Below, one piece after another: positions 9,368 to 51,455 of a stretch of DNA of 52,504 bases (the first letter of the stretch is position 1; every line of letters starts with the position of its first letter). The position numbers and the translations under genes were made by a program. This DNA comes from Clostridiaceae bacterium (lineage in GTDB: Bacteria; Bacillota; Clostridia; Christensenellales; CAG-138). The stretch spans positions 1-52,504 of the forward strand of contig JBDKTD010000088.1 of the NCBI GenBank assembly GCA_039680365.1. Reading direction: 5' to 3'. The notes under the pieces are model-generated. The model made no database searches. It was not told the DNA's origin and was given only the letters and a program-made list of their open reading frames with translations.

Positions 9368-9401
9368 GGAAAAATAAATAGCGCGCCGTTGAAGGCGCGC
9401 T
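9368..9401 (-). terminator. Rho-independent terminator ending the HD-GYP / small-membrane-protein operon
   Basis: Minus strand: AGCGCGCC-TTCAAC-GGCGCGCT (8-bp GC stem, 9380-9401) followed by ATTTATTTTTCCC. It lies 40 nt after the stop at 9441. Confidence 0.65.
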
Positions 9402-9440
9402 GCGAAATCGCATTCCTTTTTGTTTGCCGGTGTATTCTCA

Positions 9441-10001
9441 CTACTCCGGCTGGCTCTGTGTCTTGGCGGGCGCAAATTTCCGCGTCATCTGGAAGCAGAG
9501 CAGCGCAACTCCCGCGCAGAGCACGATATCCCCCGCGCTCGCAAACCCGAACGGCAGCCCGGCAGGGCCGAAGCGAAGCACGTCGCCAAGAAACGGAAGC
9601 AGCGTCTTTTCCGAAATCGCGGTGTAAGCGTAGATTTTGCCCGCGTGGAGAAGCGCAATTCTGGAAGCGTCCGCCCCCATGAGCGACGCCGCAACCGGCA
9701 TGCAGCCGCCGTTGAGCAGAATTACTACAAAGTTGGAAAAAGCGCCCAGAAACGCCAACAGCGGCCAAAGCCCGTGTTTTGCGTTCAACAACAGGAATGA
9801 AATGACCAGCGCATACTGGAGGATGCAGATCGTTTCCGCCAGCTTTTGCGGTTCGAGCAGAAAGGAAGCGCCCGCCTTGAGCAGAAGCGCCAGTATCGGC
9901 AGCATCGCTCCGTAGAGCGGATATTTCGCGCAGCTTCGGAAGGATCCGCCGCTTGCGAGACCCAGAGCAATACCCAGAGCAGCCGCGACGAGCAGAATCA
10001 T
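9441..10001 (-). CDS. Small polytopic membrane protein (DUF5317-like by recollection), translationally coupled to the HD-GYP gene
   Basis: 186 aa, hydrophobic throughout (MILLVAAALGIALGLASGG..., 5-6 predicted TM segments). Its ATG (10001-9999) overlaps the upstream TGA (10000-9998) as ATGA. The DUF5317 assignment is from memory of the family and is not a search result. Confidence 0.7.
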   Translation of the reverse strand: MILLVAAALGIALGLASGGSFRSCAKYPLYGAMLPILALLLKAGASFLLEPQKLAETICILQYALVISFLLLNAKHGLWPLLAFLGAFSNFVVILLNGGCMPVAASLMGADASRIALLHAGKIYAYTAISEKTLLPFLGDVLRFGPAGLPFGFASAGDIVLCAGVALLCFQMTRKFAPAKTQSQPE

Positions 10002-22921: not shown

Positions 22922-25285
22922 ATGAAACGTTTTCCCGTGCTCTGCCTGCTGACCGCCGCAATAGCCGCGGTTTCGTTTGCGCAGCCTTCTTCCGTGGCAC
23001 GCGCGGAGGGCGGCGGTGAGCAGAGTGATTCCGAAAGCGCTTCCGCCGGAACCGTCAAGGTCTGGTTTGGCGCAAACGAGGAGGAAAACGCGGTTCTGCG
23101 GCAGATTGCCGAGCGTTTCGAGCAGGAGACGGGCATTGCCGTCGAGGTTGTGGCACGGCGCGCCATCTTCGACGCGCCAACCGATCTTGTCAACTACGCC
23201 CAGCTAGAGGAAGCGCCGGACATCGTCTATATGCAGGCGCCGGATATCGGCACGCTTGTGCGCTCCGGTTTTCTTGAGCCGCTCGATTTTTCCGCGGAAA
23301 CAAAGAGCCGTTTTACGGATGTTGCGTTCAGTGCGTTTTCGCTGAACGGATCATGCTACGGCGTGGGCTACAACAACAGCACATCGGGACTTTTATATAA
23401 CAAAACGCTCATTTCCGAAGACGAGCTGCCTAAAACCTGGGACGGATTCTTTGCCACCGCAGAACGCCTGACCCTGCCGGACGTAAAAGGCTGGTATTCG
23501 CAGTTCGGGAAGCTTCTCAACGTACGCAACATGTGGTTTGTGTATCCTATTATCAAGGAATGCGGCGGCTACTACTACGGCCGGCTTGCGGACGGAACCT
23601 ATAACCCCTACGACGTGGGACTCGACAGCGCGGGTATGCTGCAGTACGTGGAGAAGATGAAGGAACTGCAGCAAAAGGGACTCATTCTCGGCACGCGCGT
23701 GGCGAGCGAAAGCAACATTGTCAGCGCTTTTGGCGAAGGCAAAGTCGCCATGATGCTCTACGGGCTCTGGTCGGCGGACTACCTCAAAGGGCTTAACCTG
23801 GACTACGGCATCGCTCCCTTGCCCGCCGGGAGCAACGGCGAAGCATCCCGTCCGCTTACCACAGTGGAAGGCTTTGTCGTCAACCACTATTCGCGCCATC
23901 CGAGCGCAGCAAAGCAGTTTTTGAACTATATGCTGGAGGACGAAAACCAGCAGTCGCTGATCGAGGCGGGTAATGGGTATGCGCAGAAGACCGGCGCGCG
24001 GAATCCCACGAATATGTCCGTAATCGCCAGCGACTATATTCAGAGCGACGATATCCTGAAAAACCTCAGCGCCATTGGGGAAAACAGCGAACCGTTCCCG
24101 AACATCCCCGAAGGCACGATTTGGTATAACTACACGACGACGGCGTTCGGCACGATCTTTTACGGCGACAGCAGCGGAAAAGCCGTGGACGCGGAAGTCA
24201 AGCTGCACGAACTGGCCGATGCGGTGCGCGCGGATGTTGCGCGCATGAACGAAACCACCGAGCGGGTGGATATTCCCTGGTGGGCGTTCGCCGTCTGCGG
24301 GGTTCTGTTTGTGCTGGGCGTTTCGCTTGCGTTCTTCCGCCGCCAGAAGCGGCGTGCGCAGAACCCTCTGGAACTCCCCGCGCGCTACCCCAAACATTCC
24401 GCGCTGATCGGCTGGGGGCTGATGACGCCGCTGATCTGCCTGCTTGCGCTGTTTTATATTTACCCGATTCTCCATAACATCGCGCTTTCGCTGACGAACT
24501 ACAGCAGCATCCATCTGAGTGACTACGAATACGTGGGTGCAGCGAACTACAAGAACATCCTGACCGAGGGCGTGCAGGGGCTGCTCTCGATGCTGCTCTG
24601 GACTGTGCTGTTCGCAGTCTCGGTTGTGACGCTCGCGTTCATCCTCGGAACGTTCATCGCAACGCTTTTAGAGCGCGTCGGGGTCCGTGTCGGCCGCGCG
24701 TACCGGGTGGTGTTCATCCTGCCTTGGGTCATCCCGACCGTGATTACGCTTTTAATGTGGCAGGGATTGCTGGAAACCGACGGCGGGCTGGTCAACCAGT
24801 TGCTGGGGCTTGTCGGCGTTCCCGCCATCCCCTGGCTCAGCGACCCCGTTTGGGCGCGGGTGAGTTCCATCCTCGTGATGGTGTGGTTTGCGTTTCCATA
24901 CTTCATGGTGGTGGCGTTCGGCATCCTCAAGTCCATCCCGCGGGATTACTTCGAGGCCGCGCGCATCGACGGCGCAAGCAACGCCCATATCTTCCGCTCC
25001 ATTACGCTGCCCATCGTGTTCAAAGCCATGAAGCCTACGCTGATTATGTCGCTTATTATGCAGTTCAACCAGTTCGGCATCTACCTGCTCACGCAGGGCG
25101 GCCCCGCTTCGGACAAGCTCGGCGCGCCGGGCGCCACCGACCTGTTGATTACCTACATCTTCAACACCGCGTTCAACACCGGCAGTTACGCCAAAGCCGC
25201 GGCCTACTCGGTGATCCTGTTCCTCTTTATCGGCACCTTCTCGCTCGTTGCCATGAACCGCGGCAGCCGAAAGGAGGCGGAGTGA
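22922..25285 (+). CDS. Fused extracellular solute-binding protein + CUT1 ABC permease (MalE-like domain joined to a MalF-like domain)
   Basis: 787 aa. Signal peptide MKRFPVLCLLTAAIAAVSFA. A ~430-aa binding domain follows (TVKVWFG...MMLYGLWSADYL). A TM segment WWAFAVCGVLFVLGVSLAFF lies near nt 24270. The six-TM permease carries the EAA loop EAARIDGASNAHIFRSITLP. Confidence 0.9.
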   Translation: MKRFPVLCLLTAAIAAVSFAQPSSVARAEGGGEQSDSESASAGTVKVWFGANEEENAVLRQIAERFEQETGIAVEVVARRAIFDAPTDLVNYAQLEEAPDIVYMQAPDIGTLVRSGFLEPLDFSAETKSRFTDVAFSAFSLNGSCYGVGYNNSTSGLLYNKTLISEDELPKTWDGFFATAERLTLPDVKGWYSQFGKLLNVRNMWFVYPIIKECGGYYYGRLADGTYNPYDVGLDSAGMLQYVEKMKELQQKGLILGTRVASESNIVSAFGEGKVAMMLYGLWSADYLKGLNLDYGIAPLPAGSNGEASRPLTTVEGFVVNHYSRHPSAAKQFLNYMLEDENQQSLIEAGNGYAQKTGARNPTNMSVIASDYIQSDDILKNLSAIGENSEPFPNIPEGTIWYNYTTTAFGTIFYGDSSGKAVDAEVKLHELADAVRADVARMNETTERVDIPWWAFAVCGVLFVLGVSLAFFRRQKRRAQNPLELPARYPKHSALIGWGLMTPLICLLALFYIYPILHNIALSLTNYSSIHLSDYEYVGAANYKNILTEGVQGLLSMLLWTVLFAVSVVTLAFILGTFIATLLERVGVRVGRAYRVVFILPWVIPTVITLLMWQGLLETDGGLVNQLLGLVGVPAIPWLSDPVWARVSSILVMVWFAFPYFMVVAFGILKSIPRDYFEAARIDGASNAHIFRSITLPIVFKAMKPTLIMSLIMQFNQFGIYLLTQGGPASDKLGAPGATDLLITYIFNTAFNTGSYAKAAAYSVILFLFIGTFSLVAMNRGSRKEAE

Positions 25286-36416: not shown

Positions 36417-37811
36417 ATGAAAAAACTACTCGCGATTCTATTGACTGTGGCTGTACTGTTGTCCGTGTGCGCCTGCTCGAAACCCGCAGAAACGGCCGCA
36501 GCACCCACGACCGAAGAAGCGGCGGCAGCACCCGCCGAAGAAGCCGCCGCCCCCGCTGCTCCGGCAGAACAGGGAAAAGTTTACAACATCTACTGCTGGA
36601 ATGTAGAATTCCAGGCTCGTTTCCAGAAGTACTTTATCGACGCGGGCCTCGTGCCGGACGGCGTAACGATCAACTGGGTTATCACGCCGAACGCCGATAA
36701 CGCCTACCAGGCCAAGTTGGACGAAGCGCTGCTTGCGCAGGAAACCGCCGCGGCCGACGATAAGATCGACCTGTTCCTGATTGAAGCGGATTACGCGCTC
36801 AAGTATGTCAACACCGATTACACGCTGGATGTTTACAAGGATCTCGGACTGACGGAAGACGATACCTCCGCCATGTACGGCTACACCAAGGACGTCTGCA
36901 CGGACGCCAACGGCGCGCTCAAGGGTCTCTCCTGGCAGGCCTGCCCCGCCGGCTTGATCTACCGCCGCTCGATTGCCAAGGCGGTTCTTGGCACGGATGA
37001 TCCGGCAGAAGTACAGGCAAAGCTCGACAGCTGGGATAAGTTCAACGCTGTCGCCGCGGACGCCAAAGCGCTGGATTACCTCATGGTTGCCGGCTATGAC
37101 GACGATTACCGCGTGTTCAGCAACAACGCCACCACGACCTGGGTTGACGCGAACAACAAGATTCAGTTCGACCCGAATATCCTGGCCTGGATCGATCAGA
37201 CCAAGACCTTTACCGACAACGGTTACAACAACAAGGCGATCCTCTGGTCCCCCGAACAGTGGGTTGGCGCGAAGGCCGACGGCAAAGTGATGTGCTACTT
37301 CGGGCCGGGCTGGTTCTTCGATTTCTGCCTTGCTCCCGCAACGCTGGCTGATTCGGAAGCGGAAGCCGCTGTTGGCAACGGCAGTTATGGCGATTGGGCG
37401 ATTGTCAAAGGACCGCAGAGTTATTACTGGGGCGGCACCTGGCTGTGCGCGGCCAAAGGCTCCGATAACCTCGAACTCACGAATCTGATCATGAAGACCA
37501 TGACCTGCGACAAGGACACGCTGATTGGCATCGTTCACGATTTCAATGACTTCACCAACAACGAAGAGGCCATGACGGAAATTGCCAACAGCGACTTTTC
37601 CAGCGCGTTCCTCGGCGGCCAGAACTATATCTCCTTGCTGCTCGACAGCGCAAAGAGCATTAAGTTCCTTGCGAGCCCCTATGATCAGGGCTGCAACGAG
37701 AAGCTCCAGGAAGCGATGCGCGGCTATTTCAACGGCACCGCGACCTATGAAGAAGCGATGGATAACTTCTATACGCTCGTTCTCGAGAAGTACCCCGAAC
37801 TGAGCAGATAA
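36417..37811 (+). CDS. CUT1 carbohydrate ABC substrate-binding lipoprotein
   Basis: 464 aa. Signal peptide with Cys (LLSVCAC), an Ala/Pro/Glu linker, then a binding fold. RBS AGGAGGAG. Confidence 0.9.
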   Translation: MKKLLAILLTVAVLLSVCACSKPAETAAAPTTEEAAAAPAEEAAAPAAPAEQGKVYNIYCWNVEFQARFQKYFIDAGLVPDGVTINWVITPNADNAYQAKLDEALLAQETAAADDKIDLFLIEADYALKYVNTDYTLDVYKDLGLTEDDTSAMYGYTKDVCTDANGALKGLSWQACPAGLIYRRSIAKAVLGTDDPAEVQAKLDSWDKFNAVAADAKALDYLMVAGYDDDYRVFSNNATTTWVDANNKIQFDPNILAWIDQTKTFTDNGYNNKAILWSPEQWVGAKADGKVMCYFGPGWFFDFCLAPATLADSEAEAAVGNGSYGDWAIVKGPQSYYWGGTWLCAAKGSDNLELTNLIMKTMTCDKDTLIGIVHDFNDFTNNEEAMTEIANSDFSSAFLGGQNYISLLLDSAKSIKFLASPYDQGCNEKLQEAMRGYFNGTATYEEAMDNFYTLVLEKYPELSR

Positions 37812-41142: not shown

Positions 41143-41165
41143 GACGGCGCGCGCATATCTAGCGC

Positions 41166-41202
41166 ATAAAAAACCTACGGTTTATTATGCCGTAGGTTTT
41201 TA
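41166..41202. terminator. Bidirectional rho-independent terminator between GH9 and the hybrid kinase
   Basis: AAAAACCTACGG-TTTATTATG-CCGTAGGTTTTT: a perfect stem flanked by an A-run and a T-run. Confidence 0.8.
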
Positions 41203-41261
41203 CTTGTCCGTTTTCAGTGAAACTCGACAGACGGGCGGTTTTTTGCTGGTAATTCGCTGTA

Positions 41262-44180
41262 TCAATAGTTTTCGAGCGCGTCTCTCGTCTGTTCGAGCGC
41301 AAGCAGGAACGGTTCCAGCAGCCGCGTAATCGCGCTTTCTCCGCCTTCCTTGAACGCCTGCTGCAGCGCCGCCGCCGCGTCTTGCAGCGATTTTGCGCCA
41401 ATGCTGCCCGCGCTGCTCTTGAGCTTATGGACGATCTGTTCGCCCTGAACATAGTCTTTTGCCAGCACCGCCGCGTTCAGATCAGGCTCAATCGAGCCGG
41501 TCTCCTCCAGAAACGACTGGAGCACCAGCCGGTAAATCGCGTCGTCCCCGCCGATGCGCTTGCGCCCGTCGGCAAAGTCCACAATCGCCGGGTGCTCTTC
41601 GGCGGCCTCCGTCGGAGCCTTTTCCCGCCGCGGCCGCCTGCCTTCCAACAGGGAAACCAGCGTCTCAATCAGCTGCTCCGGCTCAAAGGGCTTACTCACA
41701 TAGCTGTGGATTCCGTGCGCTCTGCACTGCTCCTCAACGCCCGCAATCGCGTCCGCCGTCATGGCGACAATGGGGATATCCGCGTCGATTTTCCGTATCA
41801 GGCCGGAAGCCGTGTAGCCGTCCATCACCGGCATGTGCAAATCCATCAGGATCAGATCGATCTCCTCCGGATGCGCCGCAAAGAAGCGCCAGCCTTCCTC
41901 GCCGTCGGAGGCGACATCCAGCGCAAAGCCCGCCTGTTCAAGGATACTCTTGGCGATGAACTGGTTGGTTTTGTTGTCCTCCACCAGCAGCAGCCGGTAA
42001 GGATGGGGCAGCGAATGATGATCCGCCGGTTTTGCGGCCTGCCGTTCTTCCGGCGGCTTGATCTTGAGAATTTCAATGATGCCGTTGTACAAAACGGACG
42101 GGATGACAGGCTTTGTCATGCCAAAGTCGAGACCCGCCGCTTCCAGCTCTTCCAAAAGATCCTCGCGCATCATCGGCATGAGCAGAATCGTCTTGGTTTC
42201 ATCCGGCAGTTTCCGCCTGCGCTTCAGCGTTTTGAACCATTCAATGCCGTTCTCGCGGGGCGTGACGTGGTCGATCAGCAGGATGCTGTACGGTTTTCCT
42301 TCCTTAACTCCCTGCGCAATCAGCTGCTGCGCCTGCTCCGGCGTCTCCGCCATGTCCGCAGCGATGCCGAACGAGCGGAAGCACTCCGCCAACTGTGCGC
42401 GCGCGCTTTCGCTTTGATCCAGCGCCAGCGCCCGCATGCTGCGGAAGCATTCAACGGACATCCGCGCGCTTCTTGCGCGTTCCTGCACGGCGTCGGGCTC
42501 CAGCGGCAGTTTCACGGCAAAGACCGAGCCGACATTCGGTTCGCTTGTGACAGAGATTTCTCCGTTCATCAGATCCACAAGACTCTTGACGATGGAGAGC
42601 CCCAGCCCGCTGCCGCCGAACCGCCTGCTGATGCTGGAATCGCCCTGATCGAACGGCACAAACAAGTGCTCCAGCTGCTCCCCACTCATGCCGATGCCGG
42701 TATCGGAAACGATGAACTCGAGTTTCGATACCTCCGTTTGCCCCTCCGCCGGGCGGACGACGAGCTTAACCTGCCCGTGCTCCGTAAACTTGACGGCGTT
42801 GTTGACGAGGTTGAGCAGAATCTGCTCAATGCGCAGCGGATCGCCAAAGAAATAGGAAGGCAGAGCGGGGTCTTTCTCCAGCAGCAGCTCAATGCCCTGC
42901 TCTTCCACCTTGACGGACTCAATGTTGACAATCTTTTGCAAAAGCTTGTCCAGATCAAACGAAATCCGCTCAATCGCTATCTTTCCCGCTTCGATCTTGG
43001 AAAAATCGAGGATGTCGTTGATCGTGCCCAGCATCGTGCGCGCGGCTTGCGACAGCTTGTCGAGGTAGCTGTTCTGCGTGGCCGTCAGATCGGTTTTCTT
43101 CATGAGATACGCCATGCCCATTATCGCGTTAAGCGGCGTGCGGATTTCATGCGACATGCGCGCGAGAAACAGCGACTTAACCTGGTTTGCCTGCTCCGCT
43201 TCCTCTTTTGCGAGAACCAGCTCTTCCTGCGCTTTTTTACGTTTGGCAACCTCTTTTCGCAGCCGGATGATCCAGAGGTACGAAACGGCTACTACGAGCG
43301 CCAGAATCCCGACGCCGACGCCGACGCCGCGCAGCATATCCTGATAGTCCAGCGTAGCTTCAACGTCGACCCATTTGTTGTTGATTTCGTTTCGTTCTTC
43401 CTTTGTAATGCTGACGATGGCTTTGTTGAGAATGCTCACCAGTTCCGGCCAGTCCTTGCGCACTGCAAAATGCAGCGACTGCGAGGTGTCCCCCGGCGCC
43501 GGGTCGATGGTGAAGTACTTGAGGTTTGTAATGCCGTTTTCCCGCGCGAGATAGCTGGAAGTCGCCATATTGCCGATAAACGCAAGCTCCGTCCCCTGGG
43601 AAACGGCGCGGAGCCCCGCCTCCACCGTGGGGTACAGGCTCAGCTTGATCTCCGGAAACTGCGTTAAGTAGCTGTGATGCGAGCTGTTCATCTGCACGGC
43701 GACGGTCTTGCCTTTCAGGTCCGCAAACTCGTTGAGATTTTTTGTTTCCTGATTGATAAACACCGCGCGCTGAAAGGTAAAATAGGTATCCGAGAATAAA
43801 AAATACCGCTCGCGTTCGGCGGTTTGCGCAACGCACGGTAAAACGTCCAGTTCGCCCCGCACGGCTTTTTCATACGCTTCGGTCCAGGTCAGCCCCTCCT
43901 GCACCTGCATATCCAGCCCCGTTCGCTCGCAGATCAGCGCGATATAGTCCGCCGCAATGCCTTTATACACACCGTCGGTATCGAAGAACTCGTATGGCAC
44001 AAAGTTCGGATCGACGCCGAGGCGAATCACCGGATGTTCATACAGAAACGCTTCCTCCTCCGGGGTCAGCTCGATGGTCGGCTGCGGGGTGTCGTCCTGC
44101 GCGCTCGAAGCCGGCACGGGACAGCTAAATACCAGCAGGAACACGGCAAGCAGCGCCGCAATCCATTTTGTCCGTTTCAT
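41262..44180 (-). CDS. BvgS/EvgS-like hybrid sensor histidine kinase (periplasmic SBP_bac_3 domain, TM, HisKA-HATPase, degenerate REC, REC, HPt)
   Basis: The ORF track starts at 44282. ATG 44180 (GGGAGG 8 nt upstream) gives the signal/TM sequence MKRTKWIAALLAVFLLVF. A venus-flytrap domain follows (IRLGVDPNFVPYEFFD). H-box ARMSHEIRTPLNAI; G-boxes DTGIGM and GGSGLGLSI. REC LILMDLHMPVMDG...SKP. HPt HKLKSSAGSIGA. Confidence 0.9.
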   Translation of the reverse strand: MKRTKWIAALLAVFLLVFSCPVPASSAQDDTPQPTIELTPEEEAFLYEHPVIRLGVDPNFVPYEFFDTDGVYKGIAADYIALICERTGLDMQVQEGLTWTEAYEKAVRGELDVLPCVAQTAERERYFLFSDTYFTFQRAVFINQETKNLNEFADLKGKTVAVQMNSSHHSYLTQFPEIKLSLYPTVEAGLRAVSQGTELAFIGNMATSSYLARENGITNLKYFTIDPAPGDTSQSLHFAVRKDWPELVSILNKAIVSITKEERNEINNKWVDVEATLDYQDMLRGVGVGVGILALVVAVSYLWIIRLRKEVAKRKKAQEELVLAKEEAEQANQVKSLFLARMSHEIRTPLNAIMGMAYLMKKTDLTATQNSYLDKLSQAARTMLGTINDILDFSKIEAGKIAIERISFDLDKLLQKIVNIESVKVEEQGIELLLEKDPALPSYFFGDPLRIEQILLNLVNNAVKFTEHGQVKLVVRPAEGQTEVSKLEFIVSDTGIGMSGEQLEHLFVPFDQGDSSISRRFGGSGLGLSIVKSLVDLMNGEISVTSEPNVGSVFAVKLPLEPDAVQERARSARMSVECFRSMRALALDQSESARAQLAECFRSFGIAADMAETPEQAQQLIAQGVKEGKPYSILLIDHVTPRENGIEWFKTLKRRRKLPDETKTILLMPMMREDLLEELEAAGLDFGMTKPVIPSVLYNGIIEILKIKPPEERQAAKPADHHSLPHPYRLLLVEDNKTNQFIAKSILEQAGFALDVASDGEEGWRFFAAHPEEIDLILMDLHMPVMDGYTASGLIRKIDADIPIVAMTADAIAGVEEQCRAHGIHSYVSKPFEPEQLIETLVSLLEGRRPRREKAPTEAAEEHPAIVDFADGRKRIGGDDAIYRLVLQSFLEETGSIEPDLNAAVLAKDYVQGEQIVHKLKSSAGSIGAKSLQDAAAALQQAFKEGGESAITRLLEPFLLALEQTRDALENY

Positions 44181-44196
44181 TTGCTCGCCTCCCGCT

Positions 44197-45270
44197 TCAG
44201 GCCGGCTGCTGGCCAAAGCTGTCCGCAATCGCCATGACTTCCGCTTCAATTTCGAAGAACGCGTCCAGTAGTTCCGGGTCAAAATGCCTGCCGCGCTGTG
44301 CCGTCATCGTCTCTTTCGCCTCTTCGTACGAAAACGCGGGCTTGTAGACGCGCTTGTTGACCAGCGCGTCGTACACGTCGATAATCGCCATCAGGCGACC
44401 GGAAAGCGGAATTTCTTTCCCTTTCAGCCCGACAGGATAGCCGGAACCGTTAAACTTTTCGTGGTGCGTGCCCGCAATCTCCGCGGCGGTTCGAATAAAC
44501 GGCAGACTGTCGCTCTCCGGCCCCATGCAGCGGAGCGCTTCCGCGCCGTAGGTCGTGTGCTTTTTCATGATTTCAAACTCTTCCGGCGTCAGTTTGCCGG
44601 GCTTGAGCAGAATATGGTCCGGAATACCCACCTTGCCGATATCGTGCAGGGGCGTCGTATCAAATAGCTCCGTGCTGTAGCTGTCTGTGAGCAAAACGTC
44701 GTACGGCGGCTTGGCGCGCAGGTGGCCGCAGAGCGCGCGCATCATCAGCTGGGTGCGTTTGGTATGGTTGCTGGACTCGATGTTTCTTACTTCCAGCAGG
44801 CTGACCAGCGCGTGGATGGTAACGTCCCGCGTTAAAACGCTCTCCCGTGTCCGCTCGGCGACGCGCTGCTCCAAAATCACGTTCTGCTGCGCCAGCTCGT
44901 CCCGCGCGTTCTTGAGCTTGATCTGCAGTTCGACCCTTTTTCGCAGGGAGCGGATGTTGAGGGGCTTGCGGATGTAATCCACCGCCCCCAAATCGAGGCC
45001 GCGCATTTCGTTGTCTATCTCGTCGAAGTTCGTGAGCACCAGCACGGCAATGTTCTTGTGCTCCGGATGGTTTTTAAGATACTCCAGCACTTCAAAGCCG
45101 TTCATGCGCGGCATGTTGATATCGAGAATCAGGATGTCGATGTTCGGATTCTGCTCAATCCGCTCCAGTGCTTCCACGCCGTCGTTTGCGAGCAGCAGTT
45201 CAAAATCGGAAAGGATGCTGCTGATAATGGCGGCATCTGTTTTGGAATCGTCGGCAATCAGAATCTTCAT
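44197..45270 (-). CDS. Response regulator with HD-GYP output domain (RpfG-like c-di-GMP phosphodiesterase)
   Basis: 357 aa. REC MKILIADDS...ILILDINMPRMNG...IRKP. HD-GYP motifs PLHDIGKVGIPD and THHEKFNGSGYPVGL. It lies 16 nt upstream of the kinase gene. Confidence 0.9.
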   Translation of the reverse strand: MKILIADDSKTDAAIISSILSDFELLLANDGVEALERIEQNPNIDILILDINMPRMNGFEVLEYLKNHPEHKNIAVLVLTNFDEIDNEMRGLDLGAVDYIRKPLNIRSLRKRVELQIKLKNARDELAQQNVILEQRVAERTRESVLTRDVTIHALVSLLEVRNIESSNHTKRTQLMMRALCGHLRAKPPYDVLLTDSYSTELFDTTPLHDIGKVGIPDHILLKPGKLTPEEFEIMKKHTTYGAEALRCMGPESDSLPFIRTAAEIAGTHHEKFNGSGYPVGLKGKEIPLSGRLMAIIDVYDALVNKRVYKPAFSYEEAKETMTAQRGRHFDPELLDAFFEIEAEVMAIADSFGQQPA

Positions 45271-45347
45271 AGGAAGGCTCCTTTATCCTTGAATCTGTTT
45301 TACAATTTCACCGTTCAGTGATCCGCGTCGTTTCCGCCGTCCGGTCG

Positions 45348-46664
45348 TCAGGGTTCGGAGAGGATGCGGTTCCCTTCCGTTTCGATCCAGTTTAAAAACG
45401 CTTCAATCGTGGTTTCGCCGGTCATCACGCGGTGCAGACCCGCTTCGTAGAAATCATCCTTCACCTTCTGCCACTTGGGAACGGGCACGTCCACGCTGGG
45501 ATGCTCGAATCCCTCGATAAAGAGCTGGTAGTCGGGGTTCAGGCGCATGACCGACGTATCGGCCATGTCGAGGCGAATCGGCGTGCGAAACGGATAGTAC
45601 TGGTCGTGTTCCGGGCTGTATTCGCCGTTCAAAATCGCCTGCTGCGCGTCCAGCGAGATCATGTAGCGAATAAACGAAATCGCCTGCTCTTGTCCCTCCC
45701 CGCTGACGCCCGCGGAGAGCGAAAGCATCATTGGCCCCACCTCCGCGTTCAAGCCGATGCGGTCGAGCGGAATAACGCCAACCTCGAACGGTTCGCCGTT
45801 TTTTTGCACATCCGTGACTCCCCAGATTCCCTGTATCTCAAAGGCAATCTCCTGATTGAGGAAGCACTTCATAACCTCTACGCCCGTATCCTCCGTCCAG
45901 GACGGCTGCGCGTGCGCGCCGAGAATATCCTTATAAAACGCCAGCGCGGCTGCGGACGCCGGGCTGTTGAGTAAAACGGCTGTTCCGTTTTCGTCGACCA
46001 GGCTCCCGCCAAAGCCATAGATAAACTGGTTGACCATCCAGGAAACGTCGTTGCTCTCCGCGCCAACAAGCCCGATTCCCTGCGCATCCGTGTGCTGTTC
46101 CACCTGTTCCATCGCCTGTACCAGCGCGTCCAGACTCGTAATCGATCCCGCGTCAACACCGCTTGCTTCCAGCAACGTCTTGTTGTAGAGCAGGCACATG
46201 GAGTGCCCCAGCCAGGGGATGCCGTAAACCTTGCCGTCCGCCGTTCCTAATTTCCAGAGTTTTTCATAAAACAGGCTCTTTTCTTCCGTAAAAGAGTCGG
46301 TCAGATCCATGAGTTCGCCGCGATCGCCAAAGTACTGGACGTAGCGATACGGCAAAACGAAGACCGTTTCCGGACTGGACGTCAGCATTTTCTGAATGGC
46401 CAGCTCGTCTTCGTCCCCGCCAAGCATTCGAATGAAGGCGTCGCCGGACAACGCGGCGTTGTAGCCGTCAACGATTTTCTGAATTGCCTGTCCCCGGCCG
46501 GAGTAGTCCGTCCAGGTGATCCGAAACGAAAGTTGACTGTTTTCTTTCTGCGTAACGGCAGAAACGCTTTCTTCCACGGCGGGTTTTTTGCATGCCAACA
46601 GAACGACGGCGGAGAACGTCAATACCAATACGAACAATAAGCGCTTTATAGCAACCTGTCGCAT
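45348..46664 (-). CDS. Orphan CUT1-type extracellular sugar-binding lipoprotein (no cognate permeases), first gene of the sensor operon
   Basis: The ORF track starts at 46763. ATG 46664 gives MRQVAIKRLLFVLVLTFSAVVLLAC (lipobox LLAC). The RBS is weak. A 77-nt gap with no terminator separates it from the response-regulator gene. Confidence 0.8.
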   Translation of the reverse strand: MRQVAIKRLLFVLVLTFSAVVLLACKKPAVEESVSAVTQKENSQLSFRITWTDYSGRGQAIQKIVDGYNAALSGDAFIRMLGGDEDELAIQKMLTSSPETVFVLPYRYVQYFGDRGELMDLTDSFTEEKSLFYEKLWKLGTADGKVYGIPWLGHSMCLLYNKTLLEASGVDAGSITSLDALVQAMEQVEQHTDAQGIGLVGAESNDVSWMVNQFIYGFGGSLVDENGTAVLLNSPASAAALAFYKDILGAHAQPSWTEDTGVEVMKCFLNQEIAFEIQGIWGVTDVQKNGEPFEVGVIPLDRIGLNAEVGPMMLSLSAGVSGEGQEQAISFIRYMISLDAQQAILNGEYSPEHDQYYPFRTPIRLDMADTSVMRLNPDYQLFIEGFEHPSVDVPVPKWQKVKDDFYEAGLHRVMTGETTIEAFLNWIETEGNRILSEP

Positions 46665-46777
46665 ATTCAAATCTCTATTGGTCTTGTTGGTTCGGCTTTG
46701 TCTGCAAACAGCAAAGAATAGTAAAAATGTCGATTCGATTAGTTGAACTTGATACAACATCATAGTACATCAAACAT

Positions 46778-46848
46778 CCGCTTGAATCAACAGTTTCTCA
46801 ACAGCCAAAGCGCAGTTGTTAAATACGAACAGAACCGGATTCAAGCGG
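46778..46848. promoter_or_regulatory. Perfect 11-bp inverted repeat pair flanking 49 bp in the divergent promoter region
   Basis: CCGCTTGAATC (46778-46788) and GATTCAAGCGG (46838-46848). The right arm ends 3 nt before the candidate -35 of the GH16 gene. Confidence 0.35.
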
Positions 46849-46851
46849 CAA

Positions 46852-46881
46852 TTGACGCGCAGGCAAAAAAGAGCATACAAT
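46852..46881 (+). promoter_or_regulatory. Candidate promoter for the GH16 gene
   Basis: TTGACG (46852-46857), 18 nt spacer, TACAAT (46876-46881). Confidence 0.45.
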
Positions 46882-46968
46882 CAAGTATACCAACCGTACA
46901 GAAATCCCTTTGCGGCACGCGCCGTAAAAGTCCAGACCCGATCAACCGACGAAACGGAGCGATGAACC

Positions 46969-47904
46969 ATGCGCCTGCGCCGCCTAGCCTGTGCCGTTCT
47001 CTCGCTCTGCCTGCTCGCCGCAGGGTGCGCAAAAACGCACGAACTGCCCGAGGACGCAAACGGAGCGCAGCCGAATGCTTCGGCTGCCGCGCTCTCGCCG
47101 TCGCCTTCCCCAACGGCTTCCCCCGCGCCAACGCCTTCTCCTTCCCCCACGCCGTATATCGGCCCGCCGGAAGGGTACACCCTGCAGTTTTCGGACGAAT
47201 TTGAGGCGGAACAGATCGACGAAACGGTTTGGAGCTTCGAAACCGGCCCCTGGCCGTATAACAAGGAACTCGAGTGCTACGCGCGCGAAAACGCCTGGCT
47301 GGAAAATGGCGCGCTCGTCATCGAAGCGCGCGCGGAATCGCTGCAGAATCGCAGCTATACCTCCGCGCGGCTCAAGACGCAGGACAAAGCAGACTTTACC
47401 TATGGATATCTGGAAGTCCGCGCGGCTCTGCCGACGGCACGGGGCACCTGGTCGGCCATCTGGCTGCTGCCCAGCGACGTTCGTTACGGCGGCTATCTGC
47501 ATTCGGGCGAAATCGACATTGCAGAGCGCGTTGGCTACGACGCAAAACTTGTGCATTCCACCTTCCATACCTTTGCCAACAACTCCGTCAAGGACAACGC
47601 CATCACCGCCTCCACCCGCATCACCCGCAAGGACGACGGGTACCATGTTTATTCCCTGCTCTGGCTGCCCGACCGCATCATCGTCCGTTTTGACGGCGTA
47701 CCCGCGCTGGAATACAGGCGGCCGGCAAACGCAACGTATGAAACCTGGCCGTTCGACGTTCCGTTTCATCTGATTCTCAACCTTGCAGTCGGCGGCACGT
47801 GGGGCGGAATTAAGGGCGTGGATCAAGAAGCGTTCCCGCAGCGCATGCTGGTCGATTACGTCCGCTACTACGCGCCCGTTTCGGTACACCCCGGCAAAGA
47901 ATAA
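46969..47904 (+). CDS. GH16 beta-glucanase (laminarinase/lichenase-like) lipoprotein
   Basis: 311 aa. Lipobox LLAAGC, a Pro/Ser/Thr linker, and the catalytic motif SGEIDIAE (E-x-D-x-x-E). Also WSAIWLLP and LNLAVGG. Confidence 0.9.
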   Translation: MRLRRLACAVLSLCLLAAGCAKTHELPEDANGAQPNASAAALSPSPSPTASPAPTPSPSPTPYIGPPEGYTLQFSDEFEAEQIDETVWSFETGPWPYNKELECYARENAWLENGALVIEARAESLQNRSYTSARLKTQDKADFTYGYLEVRAALPTARGTWSAIWLLPSDVRYGGYLHSGEIDIAERVGYDAKLVHSTFHTFANNSVKDNAITASTRITRKDDGYHVYSLLWLPDRIIVRFDGVPALEYRRPANATYETWPFDVPFHLILNLAVGGTWGGIKGVDQEAFPQRMLVDYVRYYAPVSVHPGKE

Positions 47905-47977
47905 TCCAATTCAGCCGTTCGTTCTCCCGTTAAGATGGCTCTGCACCCTGCGCCGCGCGGCGGCGGAAAAGCCTCGA

Positions 47978-48006
47978 TTGACCGCGATTGCGCGCTGATT
48001 TATACT
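47978..48006 (+). promoter_or_regulatory. Candidate promoter for the glycosidase-like / HEAT / GT2 operon
   Basis: TTGACC (47978-47983), 17 nt spacer, TATACT (48001-48006). Confidence 0.5.
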
Positions 48007-48082
48007 GGTTCTGATCTGGTAACTTTCTCTCACTGAACAATGGAATACCACCCCGTTTTACTCCATAAAAAAGGCGGTATGT

Positions 48083-50272
48083 ATGGACGCAAACACCCGC
48101 AACAGAGTTCTGCGACGGCTGTCCTTTCTCGTCCTGTTGGGCGGGCTTGTCTTCTTCTGCGCCTGCGCGCCGCGCACCAAACCGGCTGAAAGCACCGCCG
48201 TCGTTACTGAAGCGCCCGCTCCAACGCCAACGTCGGAACCAACGCCCTTGCCCGCCCCCGCGTATCAGGGTCCGGTCTCCCGCGTGGAAGGCAAGCAGTT
48301 CCTCGTTCGAAACGAGAGCGGCAGTTTCGAGCCGTTCTTTGTCAAGGGCGTGGATATCGGCGCGGCAAAGCCGGGGTTCTGGCCGGGCGAGTTCGGAATC
48401 ACGCAGGAGGAGTATTCCCGCTGGTTCCAGCTCATCGGCGAACTGAGCGCCAACACCATCCGCGTCTACGTGCCGCAGATGCCCGCGTTTTACGACGCGC
48501 TGCTTGCCTATAACCTCACTTCCGAGCATCCGCTGTACCTGCTGCAAGGCGTCTATATGAACGAGGAATTGATCGGCAAGTATCTGGACGCCTACTGCAA
48601 CAACGGCGAACTGATCGACAGCTTTACCCGCGATTTAAAGAACACCATCGACATCGTGCACGGCAACGCCGTGGTGGAAAAGCTGCCCGGCAACGCGGGC
48701 GGAACCTACACGAGCGACGTTTCGAGCTATGTGATCGGCTACCTGCCCGGCATAGAGTTCAGCGCGGACTTCGTGCTTGGCACAAACGAAAAGAACCCCG
48801 AAAAGACGATCTTTTCCGTCGCCTAAGTCTATACGGAAAACGCTTCCCCCTTCGAGGTGTTTCTCGCCGAATCGCAGGAAACCATGATCGCCTACGAAAT
48901 GGAGCGCTATTCCGTTCAGCGGCCGGTTGCCTTTACCAACTGGATTACGACCGACCCGTTGGCGCACCCCGGCGAACCGAATCCCGGCATGGAGGACGCG
49001 GTCGGCATAGACGCCGAGCACATCAAAGCGACCAGCGCGTATACGGCGGGGTTCTTTGCTTCCTACCATGTCTATTCCTACTACCCCGATTTGATGAGCT
49101 ATGACCCGGCGTATGTTTCCGGCGAGAACCCGAATCCCTATCGCGCGTACTTAACGGAACTGAACGCCTACCACACCATGCCGGTGCTGGTGGCGGAGTT
49201 CGGCATTCCCACCTCGCGCGGAAAGACGCATGTTAACGCCGTGACCGGTTTTGACCAGGGCAATGTGGAAGAGACGGCGCAGGGCGAAATGCTGGTTTCC
49301 ATGATGGCGGATATCCACGACGTCGGCTGCATGGGCGGGCTGATTTTCTCCTGGCAGGACGAATGGTTCAAACGCACCTGGAATACCACCGATCAGGAGG
49401 AAGCCGAGCGCAGGCCGTACTGGTTCAGCGTGGAAAGCCCCGAAAAGACCTTCGGGCTGCTCGCCTTCGACCCCGGCGAAACAACCGCCGTGCTGATCGA
49501 CGGCAAGGCGGACGAGTGGACAAGCGAAAACGTCGTTTCTGAATCAAACGGGCTGAAACTCAGCGTCAAGAGCGACGAAGCGTATCTGTATTTCCTCGTA
49601 GAACTCGGCGGTCACACATTCGGGCAGGAACCCATCTATATTGCCGCGGATACGATTGCAGACCAGGGCAACGATCATAATAGCGGGCTGTCGTTTGCTT
49701 CCGGCGCGGATTTTTTAATCGTACTAAACGGAACGGATCAAAGCGTGATGCTTACCGACGTTTATTACGACGTATTTCAGTATCAATACTCCGTTCAGAA
49801 CAAAATGGTTGATGTTATAGAGCATCAAACAGAGAAGAATTCAGGCGTTATTACCGAGATATTCGCCGCAATGAGCCGAGGCATTGTGCTTCCGGAAACA
49901 GGCGAGTCCATCCCATTTTCCAAATTCGACGCGGGCAAGCTCACCTACGGCATAGCCGACCCGAACAGTGAAGCGTACAACTCCCTTGCGGACTTCTATG
50001 CGGGAAACGGCGTCGTCGAGCTGCACATTCCATGGCTCCTGTTCAACGTGCGCGATCCGGGCACCAAGAACATCATTGCGGACTGGAACGTCACGGGCGC
50101 GGTCACCGGTGAGACAATCGAATCGTTCGCATTTGCCGTTTGCTCGGCTGAAAGCGCCGAAACAGTGCCGTTCGGCGGCTATTCCTGGGAAAGCTGGGAT
50201 TTGCCGACCTATCACGAGCGGTTGAAAAAGAGTTATACTATAGTACAGGAATACTTTTCAGCTCTGCCGTAA
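48083..50272 (+). pseudogene. Clan GH-A-like (beta/alpha)8 glycosidase/transglycosylase-like lipoprotein interrupted by a single in-frame TAA (48824-48826)
   Basis: ORFs 48083-48826 and 48857-50272 are in the same frame, separated only by one TAA (...KTIFSVA*VYTENASPFEVFLAESQ...). The second ORF would need a GTG start with no spaced RBS and has no signal peptide. Motif order across the break: FFVKGVDIG, NTIRVY, GYLPGIEF, PVLVAEFG, GGLIFSWQDEW. It may instead be a sequencing error or a read-through site. Confidence 0.65.
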
Positions 50273-50342
50273 CGCCCCCACCCCGCATGGTTCAAACCCC
50301 GATGCCGATACCGGCCCACAATAGGAAAGGAGCACACGAAGC

Positions 50343-51455
50343 ATGATTCTTGTACAGGCGGTCGTAAACTGGCTCATCATTATCATGGCGACGGTGCTCG
50401 CGTTATTTACGCTGCTGCTGTTAACGCTGCACCTCACCAACTCCATCAAGAGCAAGCGGATTCAAGCCATGCGTGAGCAGCTCATCTGTCTTCTTTCGGG
50501 TGAAGCCGCGGCCAATCGGCTTAAAACCAAGCTGTACGAAGTGATCCGTCAGGAGGAAGGTTGCATCGTTCAGTCGATTTCGCAGATTCGCGGCATCCGC
50601 TCCCTGCGCGGGCTGCTCGTCGTCTCCGAAATTGCAGACGAACTGAGCGGCGCCGATCTGGCGGTGCTCTGCCGCGAAATCGGTGGGGAATGGTACTCCA
50701 AGTATCTCAAGCAGCAGTTCGAGGACGGCAGCGTGGATTCGGTCATCCTCGTGGTCAAGCTCGTAGGCACCTTGGGGCTCAAGCAGTATATTCCCGATGT
50801 GGTGCAGCAAATCTATTGCCACCGCGTCAACCCGCATATGCAGCATATCGGCCTGCTGTCGCTCTGCCTGCTCGGTTCGGAAGCATCTCTCGTCTCCATC
50901 TGCCGCGACCCGACCATTGCGTCTCTGCTGTCGTTTCGAACGCTGGAAGAGCTCTTTACCGTCTACAAAGGCGACCGCGAAACGCTCTGTAAGCGCCTTA
51001 TCGCCACCGCGGCGGACCAGTATATCCGCCGAACCTGCGTAAAGGCCATCGGCGAGTACCAATACACCTCGCTTGCCGATCAGGTGCTGCCGCTTCTGGA
51101 CAGCCCGCAGCTCAACATGCAAATCGACGCGGTAAGGTCTCTCGGACAGCTTGCCTGCGCCCCCGCTTATTCGAAGATTGCCGCCATGGCAAAGAACGAG
51201 CGTTGGGAACTGCGCGCGGTCGTTGCCAGCGCGCTCGTCAGCTTCGGCGTGGACGAAAATCAGAAAACGCTGATCGACTTGCTCTGCGATCGCGAGTGGT
51301 GGGTTCGCTTTCGCGCGGCGGAATCGCTGATTCAAAGCAAGCATATCAAGGCGATTCAAAATGAAGTCAAACAGCGCGGCGACCGCTACGCGGAGGAAAT
51401 GCTCCAGTTCGCGCTGGATAAACAAGCGCTTCGCAGCCGGAAGGGGGTGGCTTGA
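50343..51455 (+). CDS. Membrane-anchored HEAT-repeat protein
   Basis: 370 aa with RBS AAGGAG. One N-terminal TM segment (LIIIMATVLALFTLLLLTL). Helical repeats follow, with HEAT-like elements (IRRTCVKAIGEY, MQIDAVRSLGQL, RWELRAVVASAL, EWWVRFRAAESL). The stop overlaps the next start as TGATG. Confidence 0.8.
   Translation: MILVQAVVNWLIIIMATVLALFTLLLLTLHLTNSIKSKRIQAMREQLICLLSGEAAANRLKTKLYEVIRQEEGCIVQSISQIRGIRSLRGLLVVSEIADELSGADLAVLCREIGGEWYSKYLKQQFEDGSVDSVILVVKLVGTLGLKQYIPDVVQQIYCHRVNPHMQHIGLLSLCLLGSEASLVSICRDPTIASLLSFRTLEELFTVYKGDRETLCKRLIATAADQYIRRTCVKAIGEYQYTSLADQVLPLLDSPQLNMQIDAVRSLGQLACAPAYSKIAAMAKNERWELRAVVASALVSFGVDENQKTLIDLLCDREWWVRFRAAESLIQSKHIKAIQNEVKQRGDRYAEEMLQFALDKQALRSRKGVA

Follow-up and report, generated by a model that had tools for sequence, protein, structure and literature searches.

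Three adjacent genes in the 52,504-nt stretch of DNA analysed here (the window) likely form a three-component signalling cassette, in which a binding protein (SBP) acts through a kinase relay on the breakdown of c-di-GMP. Some 50 uncultured species of Bacillota conserve the cassette, which is as yet uncharacterised. In the mechanism we propose, the lipid-anchored, transporter-less SBP would capture a ligand (most likely an oligosaccharide) outside the cell and modulate a membrane hybrid histidine kinase (HK) through a presumed SBP-kinase contact, and the extracytoplasmic VFT domain of the HK probably binds a second small ligand. A phosphoryl group would then be relayed from H344 to D780 and H918 (HPt) of the HK, and on to D50 of a response regulator (RR), whose HD-GYP domain would hydrolyse c-di-GMP so that the cellular pool falls. 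Phosphorylation might either raise or lower the activity of this phosphodiesterase; in AsrK-AsrR it inhibits the HD-GYP regulator (PMC11796354).

Gene organization and genomic context

The three co-oriented genes form a minus-strand operon in the order SBP, REC-HD-GYP regulator and hybrid kinase (Table 1), and the gaps of 77 nt (45347-45271) and 16 nt (44196-44181) between them agree with the original prediction. As it also stated, no terminator lies between the genes: a scan of both gaps found no terminator-like hairpin, and the 77-nt gap folds no better than shuffled sequence (z = -0.13). The SBP reading frame is open from 46763, and the ATG at 46664 was taken as the start because it fits the lengths of the homologues (433-447 aa). 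The operon promoter is presumably located in the intergenic region facing GH16, where the sole site of a sigma-70 scan (46852-46881, plus strand) points towards the GH16 gene and an Rfam search gave no match, c-di-GMP riboswitches included. Beyond the HK stop, RNA folding identified a terminator-like hairpin common to the convergent HK and GH9 genes, which could work in both directions because its stem has an A-tract on one side and a U-tract on the other. This hairpin is absent from the output of a simple consensus terminator scan, and the stretch 41143-41275 (133 nt, minus strand, RNA fold) has a z of -2.0 as a whole.

Table 1. Coordinates of the cassette, its domains and its neighbours in the window.
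Feature	Position	Strand	Basis or remark
SBP gene	45348-46664	-	438 aa, ATG at 46664
RR gene	44197-45270	-	357 aa
HK gene	41262-44180	-	972 aa, ATG at 44180, GGGAGG just ahead
HK signal/TM1 and extracytoplasmic VFT (SBP_bac_3)	43368-44180	-	residues 1-271; Pfam SBP_bac_3 at 52-271
HK TM2, coiled linker, HisKA (H344), HATPase_c (N461, D493)	42498-43367	-	Pfam
HK first receiver-like domain (pseudo-receiver)	42081-42434	-	residue conservation
HK canonical receiver (E734, D735, D780, T808, K830)	41658-41990	-	Pfam Response_reg, residues 731-841
HK HPt (H918) and stop codon	41262-41525	-	Pfam Hpt, residues 886-967
Terminator-like hairpin	41169-41201	both-way candidate	3' of HK stop; 12-bp stem between A-tract and U-tract
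Intergenic region, SBP/GH16 divergent	46665-46968		putative operon promoter region
Divergent neighbour cluster, outside the triad	46969-52504	+	Pfam and NCBIfam
GH16	46969-47904	+	Pfam/NCBIfam
GH-A-like lipoprotein (X)	48083-50272	+	Pfam/NCBIfam and fold; interrupted by TAA at 48824-48826
HEAT protein	50343-51455	+	Pfam/NCBIfam
PgaC/IcaA-like processive GT2	51452 to past window end	+	Pfam/NCBIfam

On one side the operon is flanked by genes for GH94, LacI, a lipoprotein, two permeases and GH9, and on the other by those for GH16, the 730-aa lipoprotein X, a HEAT protein and GT2; the gene calls thus match the cellodextrin and glucanase/polysaccharide-synthase loci originally described. What was read from this context is not borne out in most species. 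Of the two sides, only that of the polysaccharide synthase recurs, with X-HEAT-GT2 adjoining the triad in the loci of 9 of the 57 species (and in locus L001), and the cellodextrin locus is found beside it in L001 and L004 alone, the two nearest relatives. Flanks in the other loci include cobalamin genes, c-di-GMP genes and others. The GH-like lipoprotein/HEAT/PgaC-like GT2 exopolysaccharide cluster is a candidate downstream target, although neither a PilZ motif nor a c-di-GMP riboswitch was found near it. The window also contains a GGDEF gene and one more HD-GYP gene, which indicates that the host has c-di-GMP signalling.

Domains and residues of the three proteins

The SBP matches Pfam SBP_bac_8 (4e-24) and SBP_bac_1 (7e-20), and 554 of the 8000 candidates scored are homologues at E<=1e-5. 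It is a lipoprotein with a signal peptide and a lipobox (LLAC) whose Cys25 is at least 90% conserved. Its AF2 model (pLDDT 84) comes closest in fold to oligosaccharide SBPs of the malto-, cello- and trehalose type, with which it shares 17-20% identity. While an oligosaccharide is the most likely ligand, "sugar" is a class-level guess from fold and family. The carbohydrate sensing of the original prediction goes beyond what this class can establish, as identity to any solved or characterised binder is about 19% (20% at most) and binders of glycerophosphodiesters, dinucleotides and sulfoquinovosyl compounds also have this fold.

The HK has the BvgS-like domain order VFT(SBP_bac_3)-TM-HisKA-HATPase-pseudoREC-REC-HPt, with Pfam matches to SBP_bac_3 (2e-24), HisKA (6e-19), HATPase_c (8e-29), Hpt (2e-11) and, in two stretches, Response_reg (1e-29). 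It scores below every NCBIfam equivalog cut-off (e.g., BarA, 431 vs. 890; EvgS, 233 vs. 1995), and the best PDB matches of its VFT are 7EJG_C (2e-37), BvgS VFTs (1e-34) and EvgS (3e-27). Across 46 orthologues, H344, N461 and D493 are invariant, as are H918 and the receiver residues D735, D780, T808 and K830 (46/46), and residue 734 is E in 45, with D in the remaining one. The pseudo-receiver keeps D637 in 44 and K690 in 41 of the 46; its second acidic position is Q589 (K, Q, A or R among orthologues), and an invariant Pro669 occupies the position of the conserved Thr. Pfam and these residues confirm the kinase layout of the original prediction, including its degenerate first receiver, and the H344-D780-H918 relay needed for the proposed multi-step phosphorelay is complete.

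The RR matches Response_reg (3e-23) and HD_5 (4e-32). Its phospho-acceptor D50, its metal ligands (E165, H169, H209, D210, H238, H269, H270 and D298) and its GYP motif (277-279) are the same in 43-44 of the 44 orthologues; the HD-GYP domain, for which a catalytically dead state had been considered, therefore has every ligand and the motif intact.

Conservation of the cassette and alternative readings

We surveyed the flanks of 57 loci on one-genome-per-species contigs. Variant A (SBP, REC-HD-GYP, kinase) is complete in 41 loci, carries one inserted gene in one, and is compatible with three that are cut by a contig end; variant B (SBP, kinase, REC-PAS-PAS-(dead GGDEF)-EAL) occurs in nine, two loci are broken, and one is an outgroup at 35% identity. 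All-vs-all clustering of flank ORFs gave the three triad genes alone as near-universal neighbours. The order SBP, REC-HD_5, VFT hybrid HK is kept in L001, L002 and L003, of which L001 is syntenic with the window, L002 lies beside cobalamin genes and L003 beside GGDEF/EAL genes. The co-occurrence survey suggested with the original prediction thus shows that the arrangement is not by chance, as 50 of the 57 species-level loci carry this cassette amid unrelated flanks. Throughout, the signalling genes come after the SBP gene, and permeases adjoin it in 0 of the 57 loci, the nearest being 3.5 kb off (in L053), which bears out the prediction of a CUT1-type SBP without permease partners as far as adjacent genes are concerned.

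The variant B clade is monophyletic and nested inside variant A. Its regulators lack the GGDEF motif and have intact EAL, DDFGTG, KxD, EGVE and QG motifs, and their receiver is 41% identical to that of the window RR (155-residue BLASTP alignment, 127 bits, vs. mostly 26-40 bits for other flank receivers), with LTNyxElDNEirGLxxGAVDyIRKP in common. EAL domains are c-di-GMP-specific. This exchange of HD-GYP for an unrelated phosphodiesterase on an orthologous receiver is our main argument for c-di-GMP hydrolysis as the output, and independently supports the degradation originally predicted; judging from its sequence, the RR should degrade c-di-GMP. HD-GYP enzymes may also use 3'3'-cGAMP, and V-cGAP3 is the third-best PDB match of the RR (5e-28), after the c-di-GMP phosphodiesterases PmGH (4MCW, 2e-39) and PA4781 (4R8Z, 5e-37), the latter of which reportedly favours pGpG. 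That the RR acts mainly on one of these other nucleotides, or through protein-protein contact, is nevertheless very improbable given the intact EAL of variant B and the presence in the RR of all eight PmGH-type trinuclear-site ligands.

MsmK-type ATPases are commonly shared by several CUT1 systems, and the SBP, a member of the CUT1-type SBP_bac_1/8 class with a CUT1 permease pair ~5.5 kb away in the window, might be an ordinary or dual-use transport protein for a permease encoded elsewhere, with signalling secondary as in MalE-Tar and GltB-GtrS. Such dual-use SBPs exist (PMC8050422, Table 1). We find this quite unlikely, as the SBP is directly upstream of signalling genes in at least 50 species and next to permeases nowhere, the permease operon in the window has a lipoprotein of its own at the place of an SBP, and SBP genes tied to transport are found with transporter genes (PMC8050422), whereas those serving kinases adjoin signalling genes (PMC8050422, Table 1; CuaDSR, PMC10384115). 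A different question is whether the HK needs the SBP. Its VFT is also found on stand-alone VFT-TM-GGDEF diguanylate cyclases (46-53% identity) without an SBP neighbour, and conservation reaches at least 95% at 56 positions, T120, R123, S166, S167, H168, G203 and N204 among them, when 46 HKs and 19 VFT-GGDEF proteins are compared. Because it recurs on SBP-less cyclases, the VFT probably senses a ligand of its own, in support of the earlier two-ligand idea. These proteins, and BvgS, EvgS and RocS1-type kinases that work without a free SBP (PMC12051241), would also fit an HK sensing via its VFT alone, with the co-transcribed SBP acting elsewhere, for instance as a sink or scavenger for the ligand or by handing it to the VFT with no stable complex formed. 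This is unlikely: the SBP and HK genes stay linked whichever of the two gene orders and output types a locus has, as would hardly be expected if they did not depend on each other functionally, and the loci examined yielded no copy of this hybrid-kinase clade that lacks an SBP.

Comparison with known systems

In CuaD-CuaS-CuaR of Ruminiclostridium cellulolyticum and XylFII-LytS-YesN of Clostridium beijerinckii, both Gram-positive anaerobes, a transporter-less SBP gene likewise adjoins kinase and regulator genes, and the SBP binds the extracellular part of the kinase and reports sugar (PMC10384115; PMC8050422, Table 1). Their kinases, however, are non-hybrid and lack a VFT, and their DNA-binding regulators induce a transporter, whereas the window cassette has a VFT hybrid kinase with a phosphorelay and a predicted c-di-GMP phosphodiesterase as output. 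A kinase also governs a REC-HD-GYP c-di-GMP phosphodiesterase in RpfC-RpfG of Xanthomonas and AsrK-AsrR of Vibrio furnissii (PMC5391125, PMC11796354), and RpfC is a hybrid kinase with REC and HPt like the HK. These proteobacterial systems have neither SBP nor VFT and take their input through a DSF-binding membrane region (RpfC) or a dCache domain (AsrK).

The HK layout, a periplasmic SBP_bac_3 VFT followed by HisKA-HATPase-REC-HPt, is shared with the BvgS family, including RocS1-RocR of Pseudomonas aeruginosa and VieS-VieA of Vibrio cholerae, in which the kinase feeds a receiver-phosphodiesterase regulator that reduces c-di-GMP (PMC12051241). Variant B follows this same logic. RocS1 and VieS differ in having two VFTs and PAS, only EAL regulators, and no pseudo-receiver or free SBP, while the HK has one VFT and no PAS. 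A free SBP beside signalling genes also controls c-di-GMP turnover in NspS-MbaA of V. cholerae and ScrB-ScrC of V. parahaemolyticus (PMC8050422, Table 1); there, its direct target is a membrane GGDEF-EAL enzyme whose sensor is dCache-like, the ligands are polyamines or an autoinducer, and neither a kinase nor a phosphorelay takes part. The cassette described here would thus represent SBP-dependent two-component signalling with a c-di-GMP phosphodiesterase as its output.

Operon organization and distribution of the cassette

The cassette consists of a binding-protein (SBP) lipoprotein gene, a REC-HD-GYP response regulator gene, and the gene of a hybrid kinase with an extracytoplasmic Venus-flytrap (VFT; SBP_bac_3) domain. 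The original prediction had described these component parts correctly, and had also reported three consecutive co-oriented genes with gaps of 77 and 16 nt and no terminator between them. The ORF coordinates agree with these gaps, neither gap contains a terminator-like hairpin, and the RNA fold of the 77-nt gap is no better than that of shuffled sequence. The SBP reading frame is open as far as 46763, but homologues of 433-447 aa fit the ATG at 46664. Just past the kinase stop codon lies a hairpin that was overlooked by a consensus terminator scan and recovered by RNA folding. As hairpins are absent from both gaps and one follows the kinase gene, the unit looks, from its nucleotide sequence, like a single operon with a defined end.

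Coordinates of the cassette, its neighbours in the window, and selected genes at related loci (L numbers)
Locus	Feature	Position	Strand	Evidence or remark
Window	SBP gene, 438 aa	start ATG 46664	minus	ORF call; Pfam SBP_bac_8 and SBP_bac_1
Window	Regulator gene, 357 aa	45270-44197	minus	AAGGAG ribosome-binding site; Pfam Response_reg and HD_5/HD
Window	Kinase gene, 972 aa	44180-41262	minus	GGGAGG upstream; Pfam SBP_bac_3, HisKA, HATPase_c, Response_reg (two stretches), Hpt
Window	12-bp hairpin with A- and U-tract flanks	41169-41201		RNA folding; lies where the kinase and GH9 genes converge
Window	X-HEAT-GT2 cluster	48083-52504	plus	Also in L001, L004, L005, L006, L010, L011, L013, L018, L030, L043
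Window	In-frame TAA in X gene	48824-48826		
Window	464-aa lipoprotein gene	36417-37811	plus	Ala/Pro/Glu-rich linker
Window	787-aa SBP-permease ORF	22922-25285	plus	SBP_bac_1/8 joined to BPD_transp_1
Window	GGDEF protein gene	7742-8920		c-di-GMP context
Window	Second HD-GYP protein gene	9998-11320		c-di-GMP context
Window	Six consecutive ORFs, 171-373 aa	14-6625	plus	No Pfam match at E<=1e-5
L003	REC-PAS-EAL protein gene	4778-7087		Beside complete triad
L049	Second REC-HD-GYP gene	6613-7872		Beside complete triad
L017	Stand-alone HD-GYP gene	6847-7824		Beside complete triad
L054	Additional REC-HisKA-HATPase gene	9101-10351		Inserted in triad
L061	VFT-TM-GGDEF gene	7001-8554		
L062	VFT-TM-GGDEF gene	2718-4271		
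L064	VFT-TM-GGDEF gene	7001-8515		

A survey of how often the three genes co-occur had been proposed as a check. We scanned one genome per species with the SBP alignment, which gave 57 loci, and used the individual domains of the window proteins to search all ORFs at these loci; the cassette was found in 50 of the 57 species loci. The order SBP, REC-HD-GYP regulator, kinase (referred to as variant A) is complete in 41 loci, and in one locus (L054) it carries an inserted gene; in three others the contig ends after the regulator gene. Nine loci (L023, L025, L032, L036, L037, L039, L040, L048, and L057) contain variant B, in which the SBP gene is followed by the kinase gene and then by a different c-di-GMP regulator gene. 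The remainder are two broken triads (L035 and L059) and an outgroup locus (L058; SBP at 35% identity) whose contig stops 385 nt past the SBP gene. Apart from the three triad genes, no gene was a near-universal neighbour when the flank ORFs of the 57 loci were clustered all against all. Context look-ups of three SBP homologues (80, 61, and 60% identity) each gave the order SBP, REC-HD_5, SBP_bac_3 hybrid kinase, flanked by the synteny of the window, by cobalamin genes, and by GGDEF and EAL genes respectively.

The carriers found in the scan are nearly all Bacillota MAGs (Christensenellaceae, Limiplasma, Oscillospiraceae, Dehalobacter, Negativicutes, Syntrophomonas, and Pelotomaculum), and the closest locus is in the Christensenellaceae MAG OY771363.1 (SBP at 90% amino-acid identity). 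Two MAG contigs labelled Desulfobacteraceae (L029) and Deltaproteobacteria (L041) contain triads of the kind usual in Bacillota. L029 and the Bacillota MAG locus L028 form a pair in the SBP tree, with nearly identical domain bit scores, and L029 and L041 seem more likely to be mis-binned than to be true proteobacterial carriers. At some loci extra signaling genes adjoin a complete triad (L003, L049, and L017), the receiver of the REC-PAS-EAL protein scoring like that of the triad regulator; together with the inserted gene in L054, these extra partners hint at branched relays.

Proposed phosphorelay and c-di-GMP output

The kinase has the BvgS/EvgS/RocS1-type arrangement of an extracytoplasmic SBP_bac_3 domain, a transmembrane helix, and HisKA-HATPase-REC-HPt, with one VFT instead of two. 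Residues H344, N461, D493, D735, D780, T808, K830, and H918 show no variation among 46 kinase orthologues, and position 734 is Glu in 45 of them and Asp in one. These invariant residues fit a phosphorelay that would run from H344 to D780 and H918, and from there to D50 of the regulator. The first receiver-like domain retains D637 and K690, has Gln, Lys, Ala, or Arg at the second acidic position, and carries an invariant Pro in place of the conserved Thr, in keeping with the degenerate REC that had been predicted there. Only about 20 residues, forming a coiled linker, separate the second transmembrane helix from HisKA, and no PAS domain was detected by Pfam at E<=0.01; in this the kinase differs from the BvgS/EvgS/RocS1 type, which has a PAS domain between membrane and HisKA. 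It falls outside the named NCBIfam equivalog families BarA (431 vs. a cut-off of 890), TorS (370 vs. 677), EvgS (233 vs. 1995), and LuxQ.

In the regulator, 43-44 of 44 orthologues share the receiver residues D8, D50, and K102, and D7 and T80 are each kept in 42. The best solved relatives of its output domain are PmGH (4MCW, 2e-39) and PA4781 (4R8Z, 5e-37), both active c-di-GMP phosphodiesterases. Residues H209, D210, H238, H269, H270, and D298, together with G277-Y278-P279, align to 4MCW, and we take E165 and H169 to be further metal ligands from their motif (ESSNH here vs. ETQNH in PmGH). The corresponding PmGH ligands are E185, H189, H221, D222, H250, H276, H277, and D305, a numbering that fits the 4MCW chain offset. 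None of these regulator positions varies in 43-44 of the 44 orthologues, and both the HD and GYP motifs and the complete ligand set of a PmGH-type trinuclear site are present. The score for the NosR-type regulator equivalog (NCBIfam) was far under its cut-off.

HD-GYP domains might serve another activity than c-di-GMP hydrolysis, and on this point variant B is informative. Its regulator (about 830 aa, REC-PAS-PAS-GGDEF-EAL) has no recognisable GGDEF motif, while the EAL, DDFGTG, KxD, EGVE, and QG motifs of its EAL domain are all intact. The variant B receivers share 41% identity with the window regulator over a 155-residue BLASTP alignment that includes its characteristic motifs, and score 112-130 bits, whereas unrelated flank receivers mostly reach 26-40 bits. 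Variant B forms a single clade nested within variant A in a neighbour-joining tree of SBP sequences, which indicates that one lineage swapped the HD-GYP domain for an unrelated fold of the same activity and kept the sensor and receiver. This swap is the strongest available evidence, and it argues that c-di-GMP hydrolysis, rather than another HD-GYP activity, is the selected output; it also offers a ready-made natural control for that output. The GGDEF gene and the second HD-GYP gene in the window indicate that the organism uses c-di-GMP.

Sensory input and neighbouring genes

The N-terminus of the SBP is a signal peptide with the lipobox LLAC, whose Cys25 is conserved in at least 90% of the homologue alignment, and the protein is thus predicted to be exported and lipid-anchored at the cell exterior. 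By sequence, the solved proteins nearest to it are maltose-type binders (E about 1e-17 to 1e-18), with identity to any solved SBP at or below 20%. An AlphaFold model (pLDDT 84) gave, among the top 50 Foldseek matches (probability 1.0, TM 0.63-0.86), mostly malto-, cello-, and trehalose-type binders, besides cyclo-oligosaccharide binders, UgpB, dinucleotide binders, and sulfoquinovosyl binders; identity to the oligosaccharide-binder folds is 17-20%. The homologue alignment also contains many invariant aromatic residues, which are typical of sugar binders. An oligosaccharide is a likely ligand, with no specific glycan nameable from homology and the predicted fold, and the score for the MalE equivalog (NCBIfam) is far under the cut-off.

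The SBP had been called CUT1-type without permease partners, and both halves of this description stand. It has the SBP_bac_1/8 family membership and two-lobe oligosaccharide-binder fold of CUT1/cluster-D proteins, and no BPD_transp_1 permease pair is adjacent to its gene in the window or at any related locus. In the window and in 50 of the 57 species loci the SBP gene adjoins the kinase and regulator genes, not permease or ATPase genes; no permease lies beside it at any locus, and the closest among the 57 loci is 3.5 kb off. The permease queries picked up such distant flank permeases, so the search was sensitive enough for this absence to be trusted.

The original prediction placed the operon between a cellodextrin-utilization locus and a beta-glucanase/polysaccharide-synthase locus. 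Both neighbourhoods are present in the window. The cellodextrin side, next to the kinase gene, comprises GH94, a LacI regulator, the 464-aa lipoprotein, a pair of BPD_transp_1 permeases, and GH9. Of these, GH9, the permeases, and the lipoprotein recur with the triad in L001 and L004 alone, and we rejected this context as a clue to the ligand. The 464-aa lipoprotein occupies the SBP slot of the LacI/permease/permease/GH9 operon; its sole match is sub-threshold (NCBIfam Asr, E 0.007, 17 bits vs. a cut-off of 50), and it probably represents a binding protein that has diverged strongly. Elsewhere in the window, a 787-aa ORF, either a true fusion or the product of a missed stop codon, precedes a second permease gene and a GH13 alpha-amylase gene.

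On the SBP side, divergent genes encode GH16, a lipoprotein of about 730 aa (referred to as X), a membrane-anchored HEAT-repeat protein, and a processive GT2 that carries the QxxRW signature and in NCBIfam matches PgaC/IcaA best (160 bits, under the 422 cut-off). The X-HEAT-GT2 cluster adjoins the triad divergently in nine of the 57 species loci and in the context look-up L001. The X family has 3851 matches and no Pfam model, and some of its records are annotated as family 2 glycosyl transferase; sequence searches of PDB, Pfam, and NCBIfam gave no credible match for X or for the 464-aa lipoprotein. The structural model of X (pLDDT 82) is a clan GH-A barrel with a beta-sandwich, nearest, at low TM, to GH157 laminarinase, GH2, GH5, and the GH72 beta-1,3-glucanosyltransferase, and its predicted fold suggests a clan GH-A glycosidase or transglycosylase. 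The X gene in the window is split by one in-frame TAA, where homologues read Tyr (TAC in L004, the only homologue checked as DNA); the stop reflects either a nonsense mutation or an error in the sequencing. The homologues examined are single ORFs of about 725-756 aa, or of 1082 aa when fused to HEAT, as in two loci. X-HEAT-GT2 looks like an uncharacterised exopolysaccharide system. PilZ-type motifs (RxxxR and [DN]xSxxG) are absent from the GT2, HEAT, and X proteins, and Rfam gave no c-di-GMP riboswitch or other RNA in the whole window (gathering threshold) or at 46500-48200 (E<=1); the c-di-GMP link to this cluster is therefore positional, and by adjacency the cluster is a candidate downstream link of the triad.

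The PDB matches of the kinase VFT are 7EJG_C, the best solved relative (a literature search on it gave method papers only), BvgS (1e-34), and EvgS (3e-27). Searching with the N-terminal 332 residues yielded mostly fragments and short proteins instead of full-length kinases, and is no census of the kinase clade; one match was again a triad. The search also retrieved VFT-TM-GGDEF proteins of about 500 aa, 46-53% identical to the kinase sensor domain, and in three contexts for two of these proteins no SBP gene is a neighbour. A comparison of 46 kinases with 19 VFT-GGDEF proteins shows at least 95% conservation at 56 VFT positions, including a T-x-E-R motif (T120, R123), S166-S167-H168, and G203-N204, where BvgS and 7EJG carry Gly-Asp. 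Positions common to the kinases and to VFT-GGDEF proteins without an SBP suggest that the VFT has a small ligand of its own, the kinase thus integrating two signals; docking of the SBP onto the VFT would be compatible with this. One ligand may then control both c-di-GMP synthesis (VFT-GGDEF) and degradation (triad) via different proteins. It is rather unlikely that the free SBP docks onto the tethered VFT (“binding protein on binding protein”) and that the cassette reports oligosaccharides from a self-made exopolysaccharide, a polymer that the adjacent GH16/GH-A-like lipoprotein/HEAT/PgaC-like GT2 cluster would make and trim; if true, matrix status and c-di-GMP would be linked in a closed feedback loop in Gram-positive anaerobes.

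Relation to known signaling systems

The original prediction linked extracellular carbohydrate sensing to c-di-GMP degradation. The feature is genuine and is best classed as a variant of SBP-dependent two-component signaling with c-di-GMP hydrolysis as its predicted output; around this core we infer the carbohydrate ligand, the contact between SBP and kinase, and the target process. A 2021 census of SBP-stimulated receptors contains kinases whose sensors are of dCache, TarH-like, HBM-like, and similar types, together with the two GGDEF-EAL enzymes MbaA and ScrC (PMC8050422), while a VFT sensor or HD-GYP routing is absent from it (PMC8050422, Table 1). Clostridial three-component systems act through DNA-binding regulators (PMC10384115), whereas the triad encodes a putative c-di-GMP phosphodiesterase regulator, REC-HD-GYP or, in variant B, REC-PAS-PAS-EAL with a degenerate GGDEF. 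[quoted passage not shown]

Known kinase-to-phosphodiesterase pairs are RpfC-RpfG, AsrK-AsrR, RocS1-RocR, and VieS-VieA (PMC5391125, PMC11796354, PMC12051241); unlike the triad, none of them includes a free SBP. The triad resembles RpfC/RpfG in pairing a hybrid kinase containing REC and HPt with a REC-HD-GYP protein, but instead of the DSF-sensing multi-pass input of RpfC its kinase has a single VFT between two transmembrane helices, and no rpfF-like gene is among the recurrent neighbours at the 57 loci. Since the phosphodiesterase AsrR is inhibited by phosphorylation (PMC11796354), the sign of control over the triad regulator is not to be assumed.

Environmental inputs to c-di-GMP signaling are largely obscure, above all in Gram-positive anaerobes. 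The cassette would supply a defined route by which an extracellular binding protein leads to c-di-GMP degradation. It is widely conserved, its roughly 50 carrier species including Christensenellaceae, Limiplasma, Oscillospiraceae, and Dehalobacter, and it joins three modules so far studied apart, namely an orphan SBP, a BvgS-type VFT kinase, and an HD-GYP/EAL regulator. The identities of the two ligands would reveal what these uncultured fermenters monitor when switching between matrix-bound and free states.
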